Assembly (NCBI GenBank): GCA_016786595.1
Contig: JAEUWB010000001.1
Location: forward strand, 2,504-66,503
Reading direction: 5' to 3'
DNA: 64,000 bases
Source: a bacterium
GTDB lineage: Bacteria; Bdellovibrionota_C; UBA2361; SZUA-149; JAEUWB01
Below, one piece after another: positions 10,035-60,090 of this stretch. Below the pieces are notes generated by a model. The model did no database searches. It saw only the letters and a program-made list of their open reading frames with translations, and was not told the origin of the DNA. Position 1 is the first letter of the stretch. The number at the start of each line of letters is the position of its first letter. A program made the translations under genes and the position numbers.

Positions 10035-10177
10035 CGCCGATCGACAATCATGCAGAGTGATGTGAAGATAAGATTGAATCGCTTTTCAATTTGCATCTAA
10101 CTCACTCTGTTAAAATAATTCACCTACTAGCATAATGCGCCTACTGATAAACCGCGCCGCGGTTTCGTTTCTTTTTG

Positions 10178-10305
10178 GAATTACGCTTGGAGTTGAGTCA
10201 AAGTCGAGGCGCGGAAATTTTTTCGATGCCGACTTTATTGCAATAAACGAGGCTGAGAAAAAATATTCCGCAACGAAGAATTTGCCCAACAACAAGCGTA
10301 ATTCT
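10178..10305 (+). repeat. Family-3 structured element, copy A (long hairpin, conserved apex)
   Basis: Outer stem GAATTACGCTTG..GTTG / CAAC..CAAGCGTAATTC. Inner stem GCGGAAATTTTTT / AAAAAATATTCCGC. Conserved apex CGATGCCGACTTTATTGCAATAAACGAGGCTGAG. Same orientation as copies at 22002 and 41785. Confidence 0.75.
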
Positions 10306-11134
10306 ACCAGTAGCGTTCGAGGTGGATATGTCCTGGATCTTTTTTAGAATGTTCTTTAAAGCCAAATGGGCCAAGTAGGCTCAGCACATCTTCAATCATT
10401 GCGGGATTGCCACAAAGAAAAAGTTGGGTTGTTGCTGGATTTAGTTCAATTCCGACTAAAGCAGAATAAATCTCTGGCTCGAGCACATTTTGCACGCGAC
10501 CTTCGGTGATCTTTCTACTGGCGTGTTTGGCTGCTGGAGATGCGGCGGCCCAACCTGGTTCACGAGAGACGATTGGCAAATAGGTGAATCGACCGTCAGC
10601 ATCATGTTCAAGATTTTCTAATTCTGCTTTGTATAAAAGCTCGTCCGACTTTCTCACGCCGTTAATGAGCACGGCATTTTTCCAGCGCCCGCCATTCACT
10701 CCGTACGCGCGAAGCATGGAAACAAAAGGTGCAATTCCTGTGCCCGTGGAAACAAACACCACGTTCTCCAATACTCCAGCATGGTCGAGGGAGAATTTTC
10801 CTTTGATTTTAGAATTAATCCAAAGTGTTTGCCCAAGATCGCAGCGATGCAGATTTGGAGTAACCTGGCCGCCTTCGACTCGGGTAATTGCAAATTCGTA
10901 GTACTGCTTTTCTGTTGGGCTTGAAGCGATTGAATATTGTCGCCGAATTATTTTGCCATTTTCTTCATCAAGGGCAAGTTCTGCATATTGTCCGGGAGTG
11001 AAAGCTTCGTTGATTTCGAAATCGGGTTTAATACGTACAACCCATAGCCCTGGGGTGTAGTCTTTGCGCCAAATGACTCGTGCGTTGTGTTCCATTTCTC
11101 TGCGAGGCCTTTTTACCCAATGTCCGACTGGCAA
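10304..11134 (-). CDS. fpr: Ferredoxin-NADP+ reductase
   Basis: 276-aa ORF with RRQYSIASSP (FAD-binding RxYS) and VFVSTGTGIAPF (NADP-binding) motifs and a C-terminal ...LERYW. Confidence 0.9.
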   Translation of the reverse strand: MPVGHWVKRPRREMEHNARVIWRKDYTPGLWVVRIKPDFEINEAFTPGQYAELALDEENGKIIRRQYSIASSPTEKQYYEFAITRVEGGQVTPNLHRCDLGQTLWINSKIKGKFSLDHAGVLENVVFVSTGTGIAPFVSMLRAYGVNGGRWKNAVLINGVRKSDELLYKAELENLEHDADGRFTYLPIVSREPGWAAASPAAKHASRKITEGRVQNVLEPEIYSALVGIELNPATTQLFLCGNPAMIEDVLSLLGPFGFKEHSKKDPGHIHLERYW

Positions 11135-21941: not shown

Positions 21942-22001
21942 AAAAGTAATATGTCATTCCTATGTTCGAATAGCAATACTTTCTGAGGATCTAGTTCCAG
22001 G

Positions 22002-22124
22002 ATTTAAGGGTTCGGTTGAGGAGAGGTCGCGGCGCAAATTTTTTTCGATGCTGACTTTATTGCAATAAACGAGGCGGAGAAAAAAATTTTGCAACGAAGA
22101 GATCGCCCAACCTAACCCTTAAAT
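22002..22124 (+). repeat. Family-3 structured element, copy B
   Basis: Outer stem ATTTAAGGGTT.GGTTG / CAACC.AACCCTTAAAT. Inner stem GCGCAAATTTTTTT / AAAAAAATTTTGC. Apex CGATGCTGACTTTATTGCAATAAACGAGGCGGAG. Confidence 0.75.
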
Positions 22125-23137
22125 CAAGCGGCGAAGAGTTTAAGTTGAGCTGGACATGTCGGCGGCTTAATCGGGAGCAATAACTTTTCCGGAGCAACTT
22201 GCTTCAGCGCATTAAAGACATGCCGATAAGCGTGGGGTCTCAGCGTACGGAGATTTTTATCAGCAATCAATTTCTTCGAGACTGGAAGATTTCGCAATTG
22301 TTGATCCGTAAATGAAGTACCTACTGCTAAACAACCAAAGGTAATGTAATCGGCATGTTGATTTAAAATCTCTGCGAATTTCCATGCATCGCGGTGCACA
22401 TCTCCGTATGGCAAAATTGGCGAAACGACGAGATTAATTTTAACGCCCTGGCAACGCAGCCCATCTACGGCCAATAAGCGCTCGGAAATACGGGGCTGTC
22501 CTGGGGTATAGCGTTGAACCACGTTTTCTAAGGGAGACTCTAAATGCATCGCCACGATGGCTTGTTCTCTGAGCATCTTTAAAGTTGGTAAAGCAGAAAT
22601 TACCATCGGTGAACGAGTCTGGATCACCAGTAGTTGTGGCGCGTAGCGCTCCAACAAATCAAGCACACCCATGGTCACAGCAAATTTTCGATGCAGGGGA
22701 AGAAAAGGATCATTAATTAGTCCCAGGTAAATCACAGACTGATTTAACGTCCCCTGTTCTTTAAGGGTATGCAAGCGTCGTTCAAGTTCGATCAGAGCAT
22801 CATCCTTGAGCATACTCATTCTGCCTGCAGGCAGAAACATCTCACGAGTTTCCGGCAAGCGTAAATGAAACTGGCTTGGAGTGAAAATGTGCTCGGCTGA
22901 AATTTCATCGGCTGCTTTTTCAGTTTCATGAATTGTATATGTCAGACCATTTGGATAACAGTTAATGGAAATTATATTTGTAGCGTAACTTGACCAAGTG
23001 CGAAGCAACTCGGGTAGATGGGGGTCGAATGTGCGCGAAGACAGATCAATCGGTCCCGCATCAATTGGCGTTGAGCTTGTTATTTTAACCGCCCGTAAAT
23101 CTTCTGGACTATGGCTAGCCCTGGGCTTTGTAGACAT
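22124..23137 (-). CDS. Radical-SAM-like (SplB/COG1533-type barrel) protein lacking the CxxxCxxC cluster motif
   Basis: 337-aa ORF. The segments GLINDPFLPLHRKF, LVIQTRSPMV and TPGQPRISERLLAVDGLRCQGVKINLVVSPILPYGD follow the pattern of that family, but the N-terminal 130 aa contain only one Cys. Confidence 0.5.
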   Translation of the reverse strand: MSTKPRASHSPEDLRAVKITSSTPIDAGPIDLSSRTFDPHLPELLRTWSSYATNIISINCYPNGLTYTIHETEKAADEISAEHIFTPSQFHLRLPETREMFLPAGRMSMLKDDALIELERRLHTLKEQGTLNQSVIYLGLINDPFLPLHRKFAVTMGVLDLLERYAPQLLVIQTRSPMVISALPTLKMLREQAIVAMHLESPLENVVQRYTPGQPRISERLLAVDGLRCQGVKINLVVSPILPYGDVHRDAWKFAEILNQHADYITFGCLAVGTSFTDQQLRNLPVSKKLIADKNLRTLRPHAYRHVFNALKQVAPEKLLLPIKPPTCPAQLKLFAA

Positions 23138-26515: not shown

Positions 26516-27204
26516 TGCCCACGCTCGACACTAAGCTATCAGTCATCATCCCTGTCTATAAGAACTCCGCGACAATTAGCGAATTAACTCAGCGCCTCCA
26601 GCAAACTCTCGAGCATATGCTTACGAGCTACGAAATTATTTTCTGCGTTGATGCTTGCCCAGAAAATTACAGCGCGCTGATCAAAGTACTTGCGGCCAAT
26701 AACACACAAATCAAACTACTCGCGCACCCGACGAATCTTGGGCAACAGCGTGCAATTTTTACAGGCCTCAGGGCCGCAAGCGGCAATATTTTCGCGGTCA
26801 TGGACGCAGATCTCCAGGATCGACCCGAGGACCTGCCTACCCTACTCCTGGAACTTCAAACTGCTTCAGCCGTTTTTGCGGGAAGGCGTGGCCAATACGA
26901 ATCGCGTTTTAGACTTTATACTGGGAAAATCTTTAAAACTTTTTTGTCCTGGATTACTGGGGTTCCTGCCGACGCTGGAGCATTTGTCGTCTTTGACAAA
27001 AGTATTTATGATTTTTTAATGATACATGCTGGTGAAAAACCATTTTTGACTGCCATGATTGGACTAAGTAAGCGTCCAGTTACGTCCATTCCGATTATTC
27101 GCAGCAAACGCGAGCATGGGGAATCTGCATATGGCGCATTTCGGCGTTTGCACCTAGCCACTAATGCAATTATCTATAGCCTTAAGTATAAACTGCTCAA
27201 ATAA
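26515..27204 (+). CDS. Family 2 glycosyltransferase (polyprenyl-phosphate sugar transferase, ArnC/GtrB-like)
   Basis: LSVIIPVYKN...VMDADLQDRPEDL pattern. The start is set to the ATG at 26515, which overlaps the upstream TAA (TAATG); the track ORF starts at 26488. Confidence 0.8.
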   Translation: MPTLDTKLSVIIPVYKNSATISELTQRLQQTLEHMLTSYEIIFCVDACPENYSALIKVLAANNTQIKLLAHPTNLGQQRAIFTGLRAASGNIFAVMDADLQDRPEDLPTLLLELQTASAVFAGRRGQYESRFRLYTGKIFKTFLSWITGVPADAGAFVVFDKSIYDFLMIHAGEKPFLTAMIGLSKRPVTSIPIIRSKREHGESAYGAFRRLHLATNAIIYSLKYKLLK

Positions 27205-37168: not shown

Positions 37169-37254
37169 CTGTCTAGAGTTGGTCCTAGAGTTAATAGGGC
37201 TTGCTGCAATCATTGTGTAACCTTTGATTTGGCAAGCCCCGGGCGATTTTGTGC

Positions 37255-37290
37255 CTAGGCCACGGAGGGACTTACTATGCCGTGGCCTAG
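37255..37290. terminator. Hairpin between convergent genes (candidate terminator)
   Basis: Perfect 11-bp stem CTAGGCCACGG / CCGTGGCCTAG with a 14-nt loop, overlapping the stop of ORF 37287-37832. Confidence 0.5.
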
Positions 37291-37832
37291 ACTTCGTTCT
37301 TCAAATAGCCTCGAACCAGAGTAACCAGACGATAGACATCCGTTTTTTGTAAACTAGACTCAACCGGCCAAGTAACAGCCAGTCGCGCCACTACCCGTTC
37401 AGGGATGAGATGCAACGCCGGATCTTCAAGCTGAGTTTGAACAAAGTCCTTGATTTTCCCTGCAAGCCCCTCAACCCCGCCAGTTTCTTTGATCAACACT
37501 TGCAAACATCCTTGAATCTTTGGAGTGCTTCCCAATAGCAACAGCGCTAGGGTTAGAGCCGCAAGATCGTGTCGTTCCTTGCACTTAAGTCTACAGTGCC
37601 CAAATCGTTCAATGACGGTCTTTTCATCTGGATTAGGCCAGGGATATTTGACGAAAGTGCCTTTTGATTTTTTTGACCCATCATCAAACTCCACATGCGG
37701 ATCCCAAAGCCCAACATGGAGACAGAACGGCAGAAGTTCAATCAGACCAGGATGTCCAGCCTTAATTGACTCGATAACTTTACCCATGCCGAAGAGTGGG
37801 TTTTGCGCGTGGAAATTGCTAGCAGCAACCAT
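37287..37832 (-). CDS. Hypothetical protein, possibly 5'-truncated
   Basis: 181-aa ORF. The reading frame stays open a further 27 codons upstream (to about 37913) with no canonical start and no SD before the ATG. No family recognised. Confidence 0.45.
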   Translation of the reverse strand: MVAASNFHAQNPLFGMGKVIESIKAGHPGLIELLPFCLHVGLWDPHVEFDDGSKKSKGTFVKYPWPNPDEKTVIERFGHCRLKCKERHDLAALTLALLLLGSTPKIQGCLQVLIKETGGVEGLAGKIKDFVQTQLEDPALHLIPERVVARLAVTWPVESSLQKTDVYRLVTLVRGYLKNEV

Positions 37833-40169: not shown

Positions 40170-40338
40170 TTTTGTTCTGAGTTAGGCAGACGAATCCGCC
40201 GAATGTCCTCCGAGATTTCAGAGCAGTGCTCGGCCGAGCAAAGCTGTCTTAAAATGGTTGGCACCACCTCAAGACAACTTTGCTTCAAATTTCAAGCAAA
40301 ACAATAACTCAGGGACTTACAACCTTAGATAAAACTTT

Positions 40339-40355
40339 ATTGCCTTAGCTACCAC
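40339..40355. repeat. Cassette-boundary inverted repeat, reverse copy 1 (ATTGCCTTAGCTACCAC)
   Basis: Pairs with 39297-39315. Together with 40439-40460 it forms a ~120-nt imperfect palindrome between the two ORFs. Confidence 0.8.
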
Positions 40356-41458: not shown

Positions 41459-41784
41459 TGATGTGTGTTTGTGCGTGGGGTACTGAGAACTAGCCCCATT
41501 ACGCTTCCTTTTTTTCAGCAGCAAGCCAACCTGGGGAAACCCCAAATTGATTCTCACAAAGCTGCCCAAAAAGAATAATTAATTCCCTCTAGGCAACTTT
41601 GCGTAGTCTTGCTGTGATTGCGAAGGAGACCAAATACATTTGGTCGACTGCGGCAATCTGTTCACTGAACTGATAAAAAGAATCAAAAAATGGTTAGGAG
41701 AGATTGCTTCGTCGGCTAACGCCTCCTCGCAATGACTCGATCATACCGTTTCCCATTTCCATACATGTGAATATACTTAAAAGC

Positions 41785-41915
41785 CCTTATTAGATTTGAG
41801 GTTGTGCCAAGTTCGACGAGCGGGAATTTTTACGATGCCGACTGTATTGTAATAAACGAGGCGGAGAAAAAATCTCCCGCGAGGAAGAAATTGGCCAAGA
41901 TCGAACCTAATAAGG
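41785..41915 (+). repeat. Family-3 structured element, copy C
   Basis: Outer stem CCTTATTAG... / ...CTAATAAGG. Inner stem GCGGGAATTTTT / AAAAAATCTCCCGC. Apex CGATGCCGACTGTATTGTAATAAACGAGGCGGAG. Nested inside cassette unit 2. Confidence 0.75.
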
Positions 41916-41931
41916 ACTTTTAAAACCTTAA

Positions 41932-47988: not shown

Positions 47989-48570
47989 CTAAGCAGACGA
48001 AGCATAATCTTCAGTCCAATTTCCACTGAATCACAGATTAACTCTTCCGATAACCCTGTTTCTCCCCTTAATTGAGCGCGCTGCAGGTAGACATAATAGG
48101 CTTGTTTTCTGGCTTGTAAAATGACCGGTGGTGGAAGATCATGTTGCAAAGCAATTCCTACCAGTAATAGTCGATCAATCCTTCCATTACCCTCAGAGCA
48201 TGGATGTATTTTCTCAAAATCGGATTAGGAACCGAAACGCAGCTTGATGACTCTTAGCTTCTAGCTGTTCGACTAATGTTTTTTTTGGGTAGAATCAGGT
48301 TATCAAAGATCACTGCTGCGGTGTCATTCTCGAATAACGTACTGCCCTCGATGCCGTTTGTATTATATGTCAGCATCAACTATCGCGTCAGCATCCAAAG
48401 TGATGCCGATACAACGCTTCGATTTTCTCTTTGGCTTTTTTACGTGGGACGCTACGTTCATTAATCCAACTATTAAGTGTTACAAAAGACACCTTCAATG
48501 CCTGGGCCAATTTTTCCTGAGTAAAGCCAGTTTCTTTGCTTAATTTTCGGAGTTTTAAGGCCTCATCCAT
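47985..48570 (-). pseudogene. Frameshifted HTH(XRE)-Fic family gene
   Basis: Three frames are needed. (1) 48570-48388: XRE-type HTH. (2) about 48379-48250: ...TNGIEGSTLFENDTAAVIFDNLILPKK, breaking near an A8 run. (3) 48224-47985: Fic motif HPCSEGNGRIDR through to the stop. No single intact ORF exists. Confidence 0.8.
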
Positions 48571-48602
48571 AACTTTATAAAGTTTGTAAAGTTATATAAA
48601 GT

Positions 48603-49406
48603 TTAAGTTTTTATAGTTAATCCAATTGGGCAATGGTCTGAACCTTTAATCTTATCGTAAATCTTGGCATCTATAATCTTTTTACGTAGCCCTTCGGCTA
48701 CTAGAAAATAGTCGATTCTCCAGCCTAAATTTTTAGGTCGAGCGTTTGCACGATAAGACCACCAAGTATAACTCTTGGGCCTGTCTCCATGCACTTCACG
48801 GTAGGTATCAATTAGACCTAAATCCAAAAAACTCGAAAACCACTCACGCTCTTCCGGTAAGAATCCTGTGAGCTTCTGCCGTGTCGCAGTTTCTGGATGA
48901 TGAATATCAATTTCTCGATGACAAATATTAAAATCACCACAAATCACCAGACGCTTACGGTCATTGGGTTTTAATTTTTTAACGGCTTTCGTGAACTGCT
49001 CTAGGAATTCATATTTCAAACCCTGGCGCTCATCTCCCGACGTGCCTGATGGGATATAAACATTCCAGAGTAGATACGCGCCTAGGTCCGTCTCTACTAG
49101 ACGCCCTTCCCCATCGGTAACTTTGTGTCCGAGTTTACGCGGCACAGCTGACTTCGATTCTACTCCATTAGTGTATGTGCCAACCCCCGAGTAGCCCTTT
49201 TTTGCAGCAAAGCTTTCGCCTACAGTGTAGTTTTTAAAACGTAATGCAGTAGTGATTTGGTGGGCTTGAATCTTTAACTCTTGTAAGCAGACGATTTGAG
49301 GTTTTTCTTTGACAACAAAGTTATTTAATCCCTTCCCCCAAGCGGCGCGAATGCCGTTGATATTCCACGAAATCAGTTTAATCGATCTGCTATTTCTTCT
49401 TGCCAT
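48603..49406 (-). CDS. xth: Exodeoxyribonuclease III
   Basis: 267-aa ORF with ISWNINGIRA, CLQELK, GDFNICH and GSDHCP motifs of the EEP/ExoIII family. Confidence 0.93.
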   Translation of the reverse strand: MARRNSRSIKLISWNINGIRAAWGKGLNNFVVKEKPQIVCLQELKIQAHQITTALRFKNYTVGESFAAKKGYSGVGTYTNGVESKSAVPRKLGHKVTDGEGRLVETDLGAYLLWNVYIPSGTSGDERQGLKYEFLEQFTKAVKKLKPNDRKRLVICGDFNICHREIDIHHPETATRQKLTGFLPEEREWFSSFLDLGLIDTYREVHGDRPKSYTWWSYRANARPKNLGWRIDYFLVAEGLRKKIIDAKIYDKIKGSDHCPIGLTIKT

Positions 49407-58617: not shown

Positions 58618-60090
58618 TCATTGGACCAATTTCACAGCAGTAACCAAATGTCCGCTACTAAGTGGCTGCAACAACTGCACTGTTCGCCCATGCGGGTCTA
58701 CTACGGTCGTAAACCCCGTATTAGTTACGCGCAGCATAAATCGCCTGGTTTCAATCGCACGAAATTGCGCCAGTAACTGGTGCTGCAGCGAAGCAATGCT
58801 TGGGTCGTACCAAGCATCATTTGTAAAATTGACTAAGAGATTTGCCCCTGCCGCAACTGTTTTTCTACTATAGCTTGACACAATGTCTTCGTAACAAATC
58901 AGTGCGCCAATTTGTAATTCTTTGCCCTGTAAGACAATCCTAATTGGGCGGGAAGATTCGCCGCGATCAAAATTACCACTGAGCGGGCTGAGTTTTCTGA
59001 CAGTTGGGTAGTAATCAGCAAACGGTAAATATTCCCCAAAAGGCATCAAGCCCTGCTTGTAATAATTGCCGACAACAACGCCCTGGGAATTACGCGCTAG
59101 AACAGCATTATAACTCGCAAACTTAATTTCCTTCTCCAGGTCAGCTGGAAAAGGAATCTGGGACATACTTTTTTTCTGCTCAATCTCTGCTGTCGTCCGT
59201 TCACGATAGGACAATGTTCCATAAATCAAAGGAACTTCTGCCTCGGGATAAACATCGAACTTAGTATTTTTGAGAATCAACTCGGAACTTGGCACAAAAG
59301 TTAAGTCGCTGGATTCTGGCCAAAACAATACTTCTGCTCCAGCCTGGACGGCCTCAGCTGACAAGCTCTGATAGCGTGCTAGATTTTCTTCACGTTTCGA
59401 GGCGTCATTCACGGTAAAAGCATCAATATTTGCTTGAACCAAGCCAACTTTAACTTCAGGAGCTTTGTCGATTAAAGCTTGAACCGCCTGCGAGCGCATC
59501 CCTCCAAGGGCAAGTAAGCCAAAGAAAAAGCCAAAGGTTAAGGCCAGTCCCCGACTACTTTCCGCTTCATTCCTGCGGAGCGAAACCAACCGTGAAGCAA
59601 CAAAAATCATCACAGCACTTAAAAGTTCAAGTGGCACGAACTCAACGAGTGAAACAAAAGGAGTAAAAATTATTTGCGTGTGCGCAAATGTCCAGGGGAA
59701 CATCCGCCATGAAGTTACTTCAGCAAGAAAATACGCAGCGCCAAGCAGTATGCCCCAAAATAGGGAGCTTCGCGCTAAAAGATAGCGATAAATAATTCCT
59801 GCGCCAAGATAAGGCAAAGCCGAAACCAGACAATAGAGAGTAAAAAGTAGCGCCCCGATTGCATCGGGAAATCCGCCAAAATTAACTAAGGTTCTAGTCA
59901 ACCAGTGCATGCCCAGGGCATGCGTGCAAACACCAAAGAGAAAAAATCCCCAAAGCGATAAATTACTACGCACCGCAAAGCAAAAGGTAATCACGGCCGC
60001 CCAGCCCAGGAACATGCTGTAGGCTGTCTCAGGCATGTGGAACGCTGAAGCGGTTAATAGTGCGGCAAGGATGTAGGGAAAAAGTTTCAT
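58618..60090 (-). CDS. lnt: Apolipoprotein N-acyltransferase
   Basis: 490-aa ORF with N-terminal polytopic helices plus a CN-hydrolase domain (LFWPES, ALICYEDIV catalytic Cys). Confidence 0.9.
   Translation of the reverse strand: MKLFPYILAALLTASAFHMPETAYSMFLGWAAVITFCFAVRSNLSLWGFFLFGVCTHALGMHWLTRTLVNFGGFPDAIGALLFTLYCLVSALPYLGAGIIYRYLLARSSLFWGILLGAAYFLAEVTSWRMFPWTFAHTQIIFTPFVSLVEFVPLELLSAVMIFVASRLVSLRRNEAESSRGLALTFGFFFGLLALGGMRSQAVQALIDKAPEVKVGLVQANIDAFTVNDASKREENLARYQSLSAEAVQAGAEVLFWPESSDLTFVPSSELILKNTKFDVYPEAEVPLIYGTLSYRERTTAEIEQKKSMSQIPFPADLEKEIKFASYNAVLARNSQGVVVGNYYKQGLMPFGEYLPFADYYPTVRKLSPLSGNFDRGESSRPIRIVLQGKELQIGALICYEDIVSSYSRKTVAAGANLLVNFTNDAWYDPSIASLQHQLLAQFRAIETRRFMLRVTNTGFTTVVDPHGRTVQLLQPLSSGHLVTAVKLVQ

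Follow-up and report, generated by a model that had tools for sequence, protein, structure and literature searches.

Stop-anchored hairpin repeats of about 120 nt with conserved cores and copy-specific arms in a Bdellovibrionota genome and other bacterial lineages

Three long hairpins in the window

The window analyzed here is a 64,000-nt stretch of contig JAEUWB010000001.1 (assembly GCA_016786595.1, positions 2,504 to 66,503) from a bacterium of the Bdellovibrionota_C lineage. It holds three copies of a long hairpin, A, B, and C; copies A and B lie at the ends of two minus-strand ORFs, the former being fpr. The features of the three loci, in window coordinates, are as follows.

10176..10306, + strand: copy A, complete hairpin (maximal stem), -51.9 kcal/mol, z -7.0
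10180-10302 (C57:12683-12805): covariance-model match of copy A, 82 bits
10178..10190, + strand: copy A outer stem, fpr-distal arm GGAATTACGCTTG, copy-specific
10205..10214, + strand: copy A internal-loop motif, 5′ side, CGAGGCGCGG, conserved
10224..10257, + strand: copy A apex module of 34 nt, including the palindrome TTATTGCAATAA
10268..10278, + strand: copy A internal-loop motif, 3′ side, CCGCAACGAAG, conserved
10293..10305, + strand: copy A outer stem, fpr-proximal arm CAAGCGTAATTC, its end overlapping the fpr stop codon
10304..10306, - strand: TAG stop of fpr (ORF 10304..11134), at the base of hairpin A, offset 0
22001..22125, + strand: copy B, complete hairpin (maximal stem), -49.7 kcal/mol, z -6.8
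22004-22122 (C57:24507-24625): covariance-model match of copy B, 55 bits
22046..22079, + strand: copy B apex module
22124..22126, - strand: TGA stop of ORF 22124..23137, two bases within the copy B outer stem, offset -1
41785..41915, + strand: copy C, complete hairpin, extendable to 41778-41923, -55.2 kcal/mol, z -7.6
41790-41910 (C57:44293-44413): covariance-model match of copy C, 56 bits
41833..41866, + strand: copy C apex module

A preliminary description of this DNA had listed three copies with a common apex, paired inner stems and copy-specific but complementary outer stems, and all of these were found where it had placed them. The exact pattern of the 34-nt apex matched three times in the window, each time on the + strand, and in 0 of 100 shuffled sequences. 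The inner stems pair as quoted there (GGAAATTTTTT/AAAAAATATTCC, GCAAATTTTTTT/AAAAAAATTTTGC, and GGGAATTTTT/AAAAAATCTCCC for the three copies), and the outer stems, although unrelated to each other, are self-complementary in every copy (GAATTACGCTTG/CAAGCGTAATTC, ATTTAAGGGTT/AACCCTTAAAT, and CCTTATTAG/CTAATAAGG). The exact fpr-distal arm of copy A has no second occurrence in the genome. Folding predicted one long hairpin per window copy, at -50 to -55 kcal/mol and z from -6.5 to -8.2, and no shuffled sequence equaled these values. The apex shuffles, the folding z-scores, and the presence of the identical sequence in eight independent metagenomes rule out an origin by chance or artefact.

The overlap of copies A and B with the stop codons of fpr and ORF 22124..23137, also described earlier, was confirmed. 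Copy C is the exception to this stop-codon rule, as no sizeable gene ends at its base and the nearest stop is about 490 nt away. The sole terminator-like site near copy A is a separate ferritin terminator at 10149-10165.

The hairpin family and its structural conservation

The covariance model, run over this and other genomes, recovered many further copies. The initial count of three was an undercount: the genome contains 8 copies of the apex type and about 38-45 copies of a wider hairpin family, each of 118-130 nt (the covariance-model scan gives 38). Nor is conservation confined to the apex, as had been thought; the mid-stem and two internal loops are conserved as well. The hallmarks of the family are its constant size of about 120 nt and the two purine-rich internal loops, CGAGGCGCGG / CCGCAACGAAG. 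The motif CGAGGCGCGG is invariant in the 43 seed sequences, but these had been picked using that motif, and the exact conservation of the loop motifs across phyla likewise follows from their use as the search pattern. Element length, which formed no part of the selection, is nearly constant at 119-124 nt, and a subfamily tolerates an additional hairpin at one defined point of a loop (ACGA^AG). Conserved and rich in purines, the internal loops have the look of a recognition platform. Search of the family copies for a conserved ORF found none, and the elements are short (<300 bp), non-coding, and multi-copy, as are bacterial MITE/stem-loop dispersed repeats. Dispersed copies stand behind housekeeping genes at intervals of 12-20 kb; some form tandem arrays, far from any stop codon.

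Compensatory changes were seen at 45 of 45 modeled base pairs among 96 distinct copies from many genomes, and paired cells made up 85.5% of this alignment, which had been fitted to the covariance model, vs. 56% after shuffling and 36-40% with the partners slid. An independent MAFFT/RNAalifold run predicted 24 pairs, 18 of them with double-sided changes. The compensatory changes in both alignments support the earlier suggestion that the structure is under selection.

Distribution across lineages

All ten tested genomes of other lineages carry copies, nine of them 11-126 each and a Bacteroidota genome one. The carriers include Wolfebacteria, Kaiserbacteria, Saccharibacteria, and other Patescibacteria, Vulcanimicrobiota, Syntrophorhabdales, Pseudohongiella, Bacteroidota, a "Deltaproteobacteria" MAG, and Bdellovibrionales. 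The complete 0.98-Mb Wolfebacteria genome contains 31 copies by the covariance model. At genus level the distribution is patchy: carriers account for 27 of 110 genomes and 25 of 60 genera of the phylum studied here, and among the relatives of the complete Wolfebacteria genome (G041) four have 12-29 copies, two have one or two weak matches, and 20 have none. Such patchiness is typical of mobile DNA. A search of viral contigs and phage records for carriage by phages gave no match to the element.

A scan of the window against Rfam 15 at the gathering threshold returned three tRNAs only, and a permissive scan of four copies gave only chance matches to miRNA models (E>3). A known RNA family is thus rejected on the lack of an Rfam match; retrons, tmRNA, SRP, 6S, and ribozymes have no Rfam support, and multi-copy dispersal argues against them. 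Literature queries by motif sequence and by topic retrieved no account of the hairpin family. The family is absent from Rfam.

Anchoring at stop codons and strand asymmetry

As a rule, kept by most copies, the hairpin base falls on the stop codon of a gene that is read from the other strand. We define the forward strand as the one with the CGAGG...ACGAAG orientation, which for copy A is the + strand. Of 34 copies in this genome, 28 have a stop no more than 30 nt to either side of the base, as do 21 of 22 copies in G041 and 16 of 22 in the sister species G051; the offsets peak at -3 to +3. In 36 of 40 copies the neighbor gene on the forward-3′ side runs on the other strand, at a distance of 6-30 nt from the match. 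A direct count placed the stop mostly 21-27 nt from the conserved CTTCG motif. The same stop-codon position recurs at scattered loci of other phyla; in CPR genomes a few copies stand behind a gene that is oriented the other way. In the complete genome, the orientation of the element tracks gene direction on both replichores. Stop-codon usage beside the copies equals that of the whole genome, TGA being equally frequent, and therefore targeting of the TA within stops fails to explain the anchoring here. Insertion into the TA of TAA/TAG stops as the cause of the anchoring is thus unsupported in this genome, since TGA stops are not depleted.

The forward strand is antisense to the mRNA, and in 36 of 40 copies it folds with the lower free energy. 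G.T outnumbers A.C by 132 to 35 in the mid and outer stems, the excess being just 73 vs. 50 in the outermost 14 bp, and the conserved G.A mismatches are on the forward strand. Such a fold asymmetry in favor of the antisense strand is not what a purely 3′ UTR-RNA function would predict.

The hairpins of Wolfebacteria start with an A-tract and end with a T-tract directly behind the stop, like bidirectional intrinsic terminators. These copies thus show the intrinsic-terminator feature of a G+C-rich hairpin followed by a T-tract; the window copies, like others of their genome, have no T-tract after the arms. No promoter for an antisense RNA was evident near the element.

Cores and arms at orthologous sites

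Comparison of Wolfebacteria species revealed presence/absence polymorphism at orthologous sites, as expected of mobile DNA. G041 and G051 share 10 filled post-stop sites, among which we count the G051 orthologue of G041:869527, missed by the covariance model and recognized by eye. About six sites are filled in G041 alone, a state in which gain and loss are indistinguishable. When G041, G051, G052, and G053 were compared, one orthologous site was filled in three of the four species. At a given site, a sister species has either the entire hairpin with its two outer arms or none of it. At the cleanest empty site (G041:349999 vs. G051), G051 has neither arm, and a separate terminator stands intact downstream in both species; at the same site, G041, G052, and G053 carry related cores within three unrelated arm pairs. 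At three sites filled in G041, G051 holds a different hairpin at the equivalent place. Conversely, two orthologous Wolfebacteria sites have arms conserved between the species, while the G051 core there is nearer to that of G041:49027 (0.84-0.90) than to its positional partner (G041:874280, 0.78). Cores that are 0.89-0.91 identical carry unrelated arms. Judged by these comparisons of sequence, core and arms do have separate histories.

Terminal inverted repeats are present inside each copy and differ between copies, being conserved only in a sister subfamily, of the GGGAAGCTCTGAT type, and, as A/T tracts, in Wolfebacteria. The sister subfamily has conserved 24-nt arms GGGAAGCTCTGATNAAGT and is young. 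TA stands on both sides of its copies C23 and C28 in this genome and at two loci of another organism; the other three copies here do not have it. It had been anticipated that the outer stems might prove to be part of a longer conserved repeat. This is not so for the three window copies, but it does hold for the sister subfamily with its conserved, partly TA-flanked 24-nt arms. An ordinary TIR transposon does not explain arms that are complementary within a copy and wholly different between copies with 90% identical cores.

As to the source of the arms, an inverted duplication of the target flank is unsupported, as empty sites hold neither arm, and copying from elsewhere in the genome is ruled out by arm sequences that are unique to their own locus. 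Arm 8-mers did not recur in orthologous flanks above control, two conserved sites excepted. In the lineage of the genome studied here no empty sites could be found: fpr has no relative closer than 48% identity among 5.8 billion proteins, and the metagenome contigs are all clonal. The eight metagenomes all carry the same clonal sequence and no insertion polymorphism was seen in them.

Mobilizing enzymes and target-site duplications

Among the Y1_Tnp, RVT_1, and DDE_3 genes checked we found no cognate transposase or related autonomous element. The six RAYT-like Y1 genes of the genome are flanked by GTAG-type REPs of their own (GTAGCCCTGCTCC-type repeats) and not by the hairpin element, reverse transcriptase genes (RVT_1) occur in just 5 of 10 element-bearing genomes, and IS630-type DDE_3 in 1 of 13 genomes. 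RAYT, reverse transcriptase, and IS630 were rejected as mobilizers, none being associated with the element. Searches for a long element bounded by conserved arms and for a gene consistently adjoining or flanked by the element gave none. TA flanks are visible by eye in many Wolfebacteria copies. An automated test for target-site duplications gave no enrichment in this genome, with 3 of 34 copies vs. 7 in the control, and a weak one in G041, with 6 of 22 vs. 1 in the control.

Interpretation

We favor, with a probability of roughly 0.5, the reading of the element as a Correia/ERIC-like (NEMIS, YPAL) non-autonomous, MITE-like mobile hairpin repeat that enters transcripts as a 3′ UTR hairpin. It would form the 3′ UTR of the gene upstream, where the very stable RNA hairpin may set or protect the mRNA 3′ end. 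Between A/T tracts, as in Wolfebacteria, the element could work like a terminator, and elsewhere as a stabilizer or processing site. If the outer 10-12 bp need only to pair, arm sequence would be free to drift or be remade; near-identical cores could come to stand on unrelated arms because copies exchange cores, by gene conversion or by re-insertion at sites of the same kind. The mobilizing enzyme would act in trans. Co-transcribed stem-loop repeats that cluster at gene 3′ ends have precedents (PMC1590033, PMC2229807).

In the preliminary description a mobile core had been proposed that inserts into the loops of pre-existing hairpins. Formulated for the present data, only the core would move and it would home into hairpins already standing behind stops, be they terminator stems or older members of the family, the outer stems being leftovers. 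The separate histories of core and arms suit this idea, both where near-identical cores (0.89-0.91) sit on unrelated arms and where, at the two Wolfebacteria sites, the arms were kept while the G051 core resembles G041:49027 more than its positional partner. Copy C40:3113, found at the center of a target palindrome of 20 bp into which the final codons of the gene fall, points the same way, as do the likeness of Wolfebacteria arms to terminator stems with A and T tracts and the other hairpins that G051 has at three G041-filled sites. Yet the expected recipients are missing: the cleanest empty site has neither arm and keeps its separate terminator intact, and a check of the genome for simple short-loop hairpins that start at stop codons showed no excess that could serve as targets. 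Against it are also the three unrelated arm pairs around related cores at one site in G041, G052, and G053, the window-copy arms without a T-tract, and the conserved-arm subfamily, which shows that arms are able to travel with the element. We regard this core-homing proposal as unlikely.

The strand asymmetry bears on a different possibility, that the element is a structured site read on the antisense strand, as folded ssDNA or antisense RNA, by a conserved trans-acting factor. By analogy with attC bottom strands, REP/RAYT, and Ssn motifs, the internal loops would form the recognition surface and the arms would only close the fold. Integron attC sites likewise lie directly behind the stop codons of cassettes, and it is their bottom strand that folds. 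Besides the asymmetric fold, the near-constant length of 119-124 nt that nobody had selected for, the many more copies recovered by the covariance model, the extra hairpin accepted by a subfamily at the single loop point ACGA^AG, and the orientation that tracks gene direction on both replichores of the complete genome are consistent with such a factor. A further precedent is found in hairpin repeats of ssDNA that are oriented and have a small cognate nuclease (PMC11893778). However, no gene regularly accompanies the element or is bracketed by it, core sites of the attC type are missing, GTT/AAC-like boxes, read directly, are in the wrong order, and the copies are scattered behind housekeeping genes instead of standing in cassette arrays. 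In addition, the forward strand is the gene template and, for co-directional genes, the leading-strand template, hence less exposed, and the promoter that an antisense RNA would need is not evident. We therefore hold this reading to be possible but doubtful. A translation-coupled RNA switch, in which translation of the upstream gene is coupled to 3′-end protection, decay, or factor binding, seems to us very improbable. With the stop at the base, the terminating ribosome would melt only the variable outer stem (about 10-12 bp) and the core would stay folded, which agrees with the sharp anchoring of the base on the stop in several phyla, the stop-to-CTTCG distance of mostly 21-27 nt, and an outer stem free in sequence yet always paired; other, unrelated hairpin families of the genome likewise begin at the stop codon. 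The idea is drawn from position and nothing else, however, and the mRNA strand has the less favorable version of the fold. It also leaves aside the copies far from stops, for instance copy C (about 490 nt) and those in tandem arrays, and the few CPR copies behind a gene in the opposite orientation. A broader proposal, which as a whole we consider improbable, is that of an orientation-specific, stop-anchored cis signal common to many phyla, 1-Mb CPR genomes included, whose loops are read by a conserved trans-acting factor and which would thus be more than selfish DNA. In that case the sequence-free outer stem might be exactly what a ribosome melts on termination, or what an enzyme specific for single strands measures, and the signal might couple the end of translation or template-strand passage to a step of RNA/DNA metabolism.

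Even if the element is simply mobile, it would be among the most widely spread bacterial hairpin repeats so far, from Bdellovibrionota to CPR, with the same 120-nt architecture at up to about 30 copies per megabase and without an Rfam entry. The covariance model would help to annotate thousands of intergenic regions, and many of the "mystery hairpins" seen behind genes would be accounted for. For Correia and ERIC, the movement and the function of such repeats have been a standing question for decades, and the family offers testable handles in a base set exactly on the stop, a fixed orientation with the better fold on the antisense strand, and arms that are each copy's own and still pair perfectly.

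Comparison with known repeats

We know of no cognate transposase for Correia/NEMIS, and the same applies to the hairpin family. Like Correia/NEMIS of Neisseria, it is a non-coding dispersed repeat in the range of 100-160 bp that folds end to end and is present in tens to hundreds of copies by genes, in intergenic DNA that is presumably transcribed here too (partly after PMC2229807). TA ends, typical of Correia, are found here in part of the copies only. Unlike Correia, the family shows no sequence similarity to it, its outer 10-12 bp differ per copy where the TIR termini of Correia are conserved, and it spans many phyla and not one genus; strict stop anchoring and a single orientation, both features of the hairpin family, have not been reported for Correia. 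With ERIC (IRU) and YPAL of enterobacteria and Yersinia it shares the imperfect palindrome (about 127-168 bp in those repeats), the preference for gene 3′ ends, and, on our reading, co-transcription with flanking genes as RNA hairpins (PMC2229807, PMC1590033). YPAL inserts at or next to dyad symmetry and has its conserved repeats internally, not at the termini (PMC2229807, PMC1590033), and conservation inside the element is a trait of the hairpin family too. Sequence similarity is again absent, and ERIC and YPAL have conserved ends or variable direct duplications; neither has been described with hypervariable complementary arms and neither crosses phyla.

REP/REPIN-RAYT systems are likewise oriented, dispersed hairpin repeats, REPs are recognized as folded single strands, and the genome encodes six RAYT-like proteins. 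Unlike REPs, the element is 3-4 times longer, has no conserved GTAG, and does not flank RAYT genes. The resemblance to integron attC sites lies in an imperfect hairpin (57-141 nt in attC) behind a stop, in structure being conserved more than sequence, and in folding on the non-coding strand. In attC, however, the boxes (RYYYAAC...GTTRRRY) are at the base and the center varies, whereas here the base varies and the center is conserved. Direct reading of the window copies found GTTGAG.. and ..CCCAAC in the opposite order on both strands and off the base; this box order and the absence of arrays rule out identity with attC. Ssn motifs (NTS/SRM, of Neisseria and others) are also abundant, oriented hairpin repeats; they function as single-stranded DNA and occur in several phyla (PMC11893778). 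SRMs are 20-50 nt long, follow an HGTCWY... pattern, and flank their own GIY-YIG nuclease gene (PMC11893778), and by inspection against this published description the hairpin family differs from them in size and sequence. Intrinsic terminators, finally, are hairpins of 20-40 nt, unlike the 120-nt element with its conserved interior and, in the genome studied here, no T-tract; it is the Wolfebacteria copies, with an A-tract at the start and a T-tract at the end behind the stop, that resemble bidirectional terminators.

Hairpin family and its fold

Each of the three hairpins in the window (copies A, B and C) forms a single long structure of -50 to -55 kcal/mol, and z-scores for both strands are between -6.5 and -8.2. 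Their maximal stems are:

10176-10306, apex on the + strand, copy A
22001-22125, apex on the + strand, copy B
41785-41915, extensible to 41778-41923, apex on the + strand, copy C

The preliminary description had reported a shared 34-nt apex, and exact pattern matching finds it three times in the window, always on the + strand, and in 0 of 100 shuffles. The inner and outer stems quoted there were also found on direct reading of the three stretches. Conservation is not limited to the apex: the alignment extends it to the mid-stem and two internal loops. Similarly, the count of three copies is right for the window but not for the genome (2.58 Mb, 60 contigs, 44% G+C; the window lies within contig C57), where a mismatch search gives eight copies with this apex, each with a different outer-arm pair. 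The hairpins thus belong to a larger family, with about 40 non-overlapping copies in the genome by nhmmer and 38 by covariance model R1, and comprising several subfamilies with differing apex modules.

The length of the element is nearly constant, mostly 119-124 nt measured between fixed flanks, with a short form of 102-103 nt (n = 4). A 5′ motif, CGAGG(C/A)(G/A)CGG, and a 3′ motif, CCG(C/T)(A/G)ACGAAG, oppose each other in the fold as two purine-purine internal loops with one G-C pair between them. In one subfamily (C12:122040, C35:7239, C28:6520, C23:33860, C43:79068 and C24:12965) an extra GC-rich hairpin (CTTGTCCGCC...GGCGG) lies inside ACGA^AG, so that the structure becomes a three-way junction. 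An Rfam scan of the window returned three tRNAs only and no match to the family, a permissive scan of four copies gave no meaningful match, and the literature searched by motif sequence and topic held nothing on this hairpin family.

RNAalifold on a MAFFT alignment of 43 copies showed double-sided changes in 18 of 24 predicted pairs. In an alignment of 96 distinct copies, which was fitted to the covariance model so that its figures lean toward that model, such changes occur at 45/45 pairs; paired cells amount to 85.5% (56.4% in shuffles and 36-40% with slid partners) and compensatory cells number 1301, vs. 418 in shuffles. The covariation signal is far in excess of the model-fitting bias.

Some members are rearranged. 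Three lie in tandem at C43:109122-109457, one of them truncated, far from stop codons. At C26:87384-87702, where two members are neighbors, the left arm of one is directly duplicated (47 nt) around the other copy, pointing to a nested insertion or to rearrangement of the elements by template switching.

Position and orientation at stop codons

Copies A and B had been described as overlapping stop codons, and they do: the TAG of the minus-strand gene fpr lies at offset 0 from copy A and the TGA of ORF 22124..23137 at offset -1 from copy B. Copy C is an exception, as no sizeable ORF terminates at its base. Genome-wide, with genes taken from simple longest-ORF calls, the gene at the 3′ side of the forward strand (the strand reading CGAGG...ACGAAG) is on the opposite strand in 36/40 copies and ends 6-30 nt from the nhmmer match. 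Once stems were traced, the stop codon proved to coincide with the hairpin base, at times with 1-3 stop bases or the last codons within the stem. In covariance-model coordinates it lies within 30 nt either side of the base in 28 of 34 copies, and at -3 to +3 in 15; for random intergenic position and orientation we would roughly expect, by reasoning, ~12% within 30 nt and ~3% within 3 nt.

The same rule is followed by 21/22 copies in G041, a complete Wolfebacteria genome, and by 16/22 in its sister species G051, and scattered loci of Kaiserbacteria, Saccharibacteria, Bacteroidota and others have stop-codon offsets of -2 to +1. Element orientation in G041 flips along with gene direction and GC skew; at 234,442, the sole clear case of a gene running against its replichore, it goes with the gene. 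Stop-codon usage beside copies in the present genome equals that genome-wide, so targeting of the TA in TAA or TAG does not account for the anchoring there.

Distribution

Searching GTDB species genomes with an exact pattern that combines the two loop motifs gave 51 loci. These belong to uncultured Bdellovibrionales, a 'Deltaproteobacteria' MAG, Pseudohongiella, Saccharibacteria, Kaiserbacteria, Wolfebacteria, Paceibacterota, Bacteroidota, Vulcanimicrobiota and Syntrophorhabdales. The same hairpin, with locus-specific outer arms, forms at nearly all of them; a Primorskyibacter locus lacks the fold and looks like a chance match. The covariance model found many copies in nine of ten such genomes and a single one in the tenth.

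Table. Copies found by the covariance model in ten genomes
Wolfebacteria G041 (complete, 0.98 Mb): 31
Patescibacteria (0.9 Mb): 25
Saccharibacteria: 11
Kaiserbacteria: 31
Vulcanimicrobiota: 73
Syntrophorhabdales: 126
Pseudohongiella: 15
Bdellovibrionales MAG: 29
'Deltaproteobacteria' MAG: 18
Bacteroidota: 1

The element is patchily distributed: within the phylum of the present genome it occurs in 27/110 genomes and 25/60 genera, and among genomes around G041 four have 12-29 copies, two have 1-2 weak matches and 20 have none. The viral contigs and phage records searched held no copy. Three Pseudohongiella loci (L025, L027, L039) have common flanks (GGTGATGA..CTGA GTAGCG... / ...GCAGCCGCTACGTCC) and a conserved outer stem starting with GTAG.

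Separate histories of arms and core

Arm sequences occur once each in the present genome. Site comparison was made in Wolfebacteria, because the nearest relative of the fpr lineage has 48% identity and eight metagenomes yielded nothing but the identical clone, carrying the element at its site. About 800 kb of G051 was compared with 16 G041 copies that lie next to genes. Both species have a copy at ten post-stop sites (including G041:869527, whose G051 counterpart escaped the covariance model but was spotted by eye), and about six, where G051 is without either arm, are filled in G041 only; gain and loss are not distinguishable at the differing sites. The best-conserved site, behind a gene for a 100% identical 61-aa protein, is empty in G051, reading TAA-GTAAGTTTATT-TATTGCATAAAC, and in G041 has an entire 125-nt hairpin between TAA and the shared downstream sequence. 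It is also filled in the related genomes G052 and G053, with related cores and arm pairs unrelated to each other and to that of G041. A G051 copy at C3:~40200-40345 that the model missed has a 37-nt additional hairpin (TTGCCACGTGGTCCGCTTCGGGCGGAC...) beside the loop motif.

Cores of copies at separate sites with unrelated arms can be 0.89-0.91 identical. Conversely, two orthologous sites have arms that are conserved between G041 and G051, yet the G051 core there is nearer to G041:49027 (0.84-0.90) than to its positional partner (0.78 to G041:874280). It follows that the arms and the core do not share one history, and cores may have been exchanged between copies. The arms do not appear to be copies of adjoining flank, as their 8-mers are absent from orthologous flanks of other species save at two conserved sites.

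A subfamily with conserved 24-nt arms (GGGAAGCTCTGATNAAGT) is found both here and in the 'Deltaproteobacteria' MAG, which shows that arms are able to travel with the element. TA stands on both sides of two of its copies here and of both MAG loci, and not of the other three copies here. Core-less deletion derivatives of this subfamily, with outer and mid stems fused, lie at C56:~58680-58745 and C9:~26770-26830 and start at the stop codon all the same. In Wolfebacteria the arms open with an A-tract and close with a T-tract, and TA flanks are frequent by eye; an automated test of TA flanks was weak (6/22 vs. 1 control in G041, 3/34 vs. 7 control in the present genome).

Candidate mobilizing enzymes

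The genome encodes six paralogous RAYT-like Y1 proteins of ~330 aa with HUH and YLNPV motifs:

C48:14401-15384, RAYT-like gene
C59:358-1365, RAYT-like gene
C30:1470-2483, RAYT-like gene
C20:7440-8564, RAYT-like gene
C20:100543-101571, RAYT-like gene
C25:69528-70622, RAYT-like gene

They are flanked by short GTAG-type palindromes (GTAGCCCTGCTCCTAGAAGGGT and variants), not by the hairpin element, and together these look like a REP/RAYT system separate from it. Reverse transcriptase genes occur in just 5/10 carrier genomes and IS630-type DDE_3 in 1/13, and both were rejected as mobilizers. CPR copies lie beside unrelated housekeeping genes. No cognate protein emerged from these candidates, and a search for a long element bounded by conserved arms found none.

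Interpretation

As the best-supported reading, at a probability of about 0.5, we favor a mobile but non-autonomous hairpin repeat of the same kind as Correia/NEMIS, ERIC and YPAL. Each copy would lie in the 3′ UTR of the gene upstream, presumably transcribed as part of that mRNA and mobilized in trans, with constraint acting on fold and interior only. The element may act at the 3′ end of the mRNA, and Wolfebacteria copies would double as a bidirectional terminator look-alike. The main difficulty for this reading is the fold advantage of the forward strand, which a plain 3′ UTR hairpin does not predict. This strand, antisense to the adjoining gene, is the more stable in 36/40 copies, by a mean of 7.7 kcal/mol, and has the conserved G.A/A.G mismatches; its mid and outer stems contain 132 G.T-type vs. 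35 A.C-type departures, and in the outermost 14 bp the G.T-type excess is small (73 vs. 50).

Such asymmetry would suit an antisense-strand site, as ssDNA or RNA, read by a conserved factor in the manner of attC, REP or SRM. The enzyme survey yielded no partner for it. We regard this as a possible but rather unlikely explanation. Homing of the core into older hairpins would agree with the separate histories of arms and core, and one copy (C40:3113) sits at the TA in the middle of a 20-bp palindrome, which takes in the gene's last codons. At the clean empty site, neither arm is there, which rules out older hairpins at that site; we regard homing as improbable. Least probable, and in our opinion doubtful, is a translation-coupled switch whose variable outer stem is melted by the terminating ribosome: stop codons at the stem base would fit it, while copy C has no such ORF.

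Other hairpins at stop codons

At least four further hairpin families in this genome begin exactly at a stop codon, so the anchoring is not peculiar to the core studied here; simple hairpins with short loops show no enrichment at its stop codons. Members of two families lie outside the window:

C6:~220700, C15:~330, C58:~2034, C40:~89990, C49:~101320, family with apex CTTTCTTTCGCGAGAAAGAAAG, then (G/C)CAAAGAAAGC
C57:~75500, C44:~22260, C31:~73360, family with stem TAGACTGAGTGC...GCACTCAGTCTA

The former has complementary, copy-specific outer arms whose start coincides exactly with the upstream gene's stop codon. In the latter, the leading TAG is the stop of the upstream ORF and TA+A follows the far end in 3/3 copies, a sequence pattern that would fit an element inserting at the TA of a TAA stop and duplicating that TA. 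Within the window, a short hairpin (TAGGCCACGG...CCGTGGCCTA, ~37250-37290) lies behind minus-strand ORF 37287..37832 and a TAAACTTTATA...-type stem (~48560-48605) behind minus-strand ORF 48603..49406; at these approximate positions, each stem includes the stop of its ORF.
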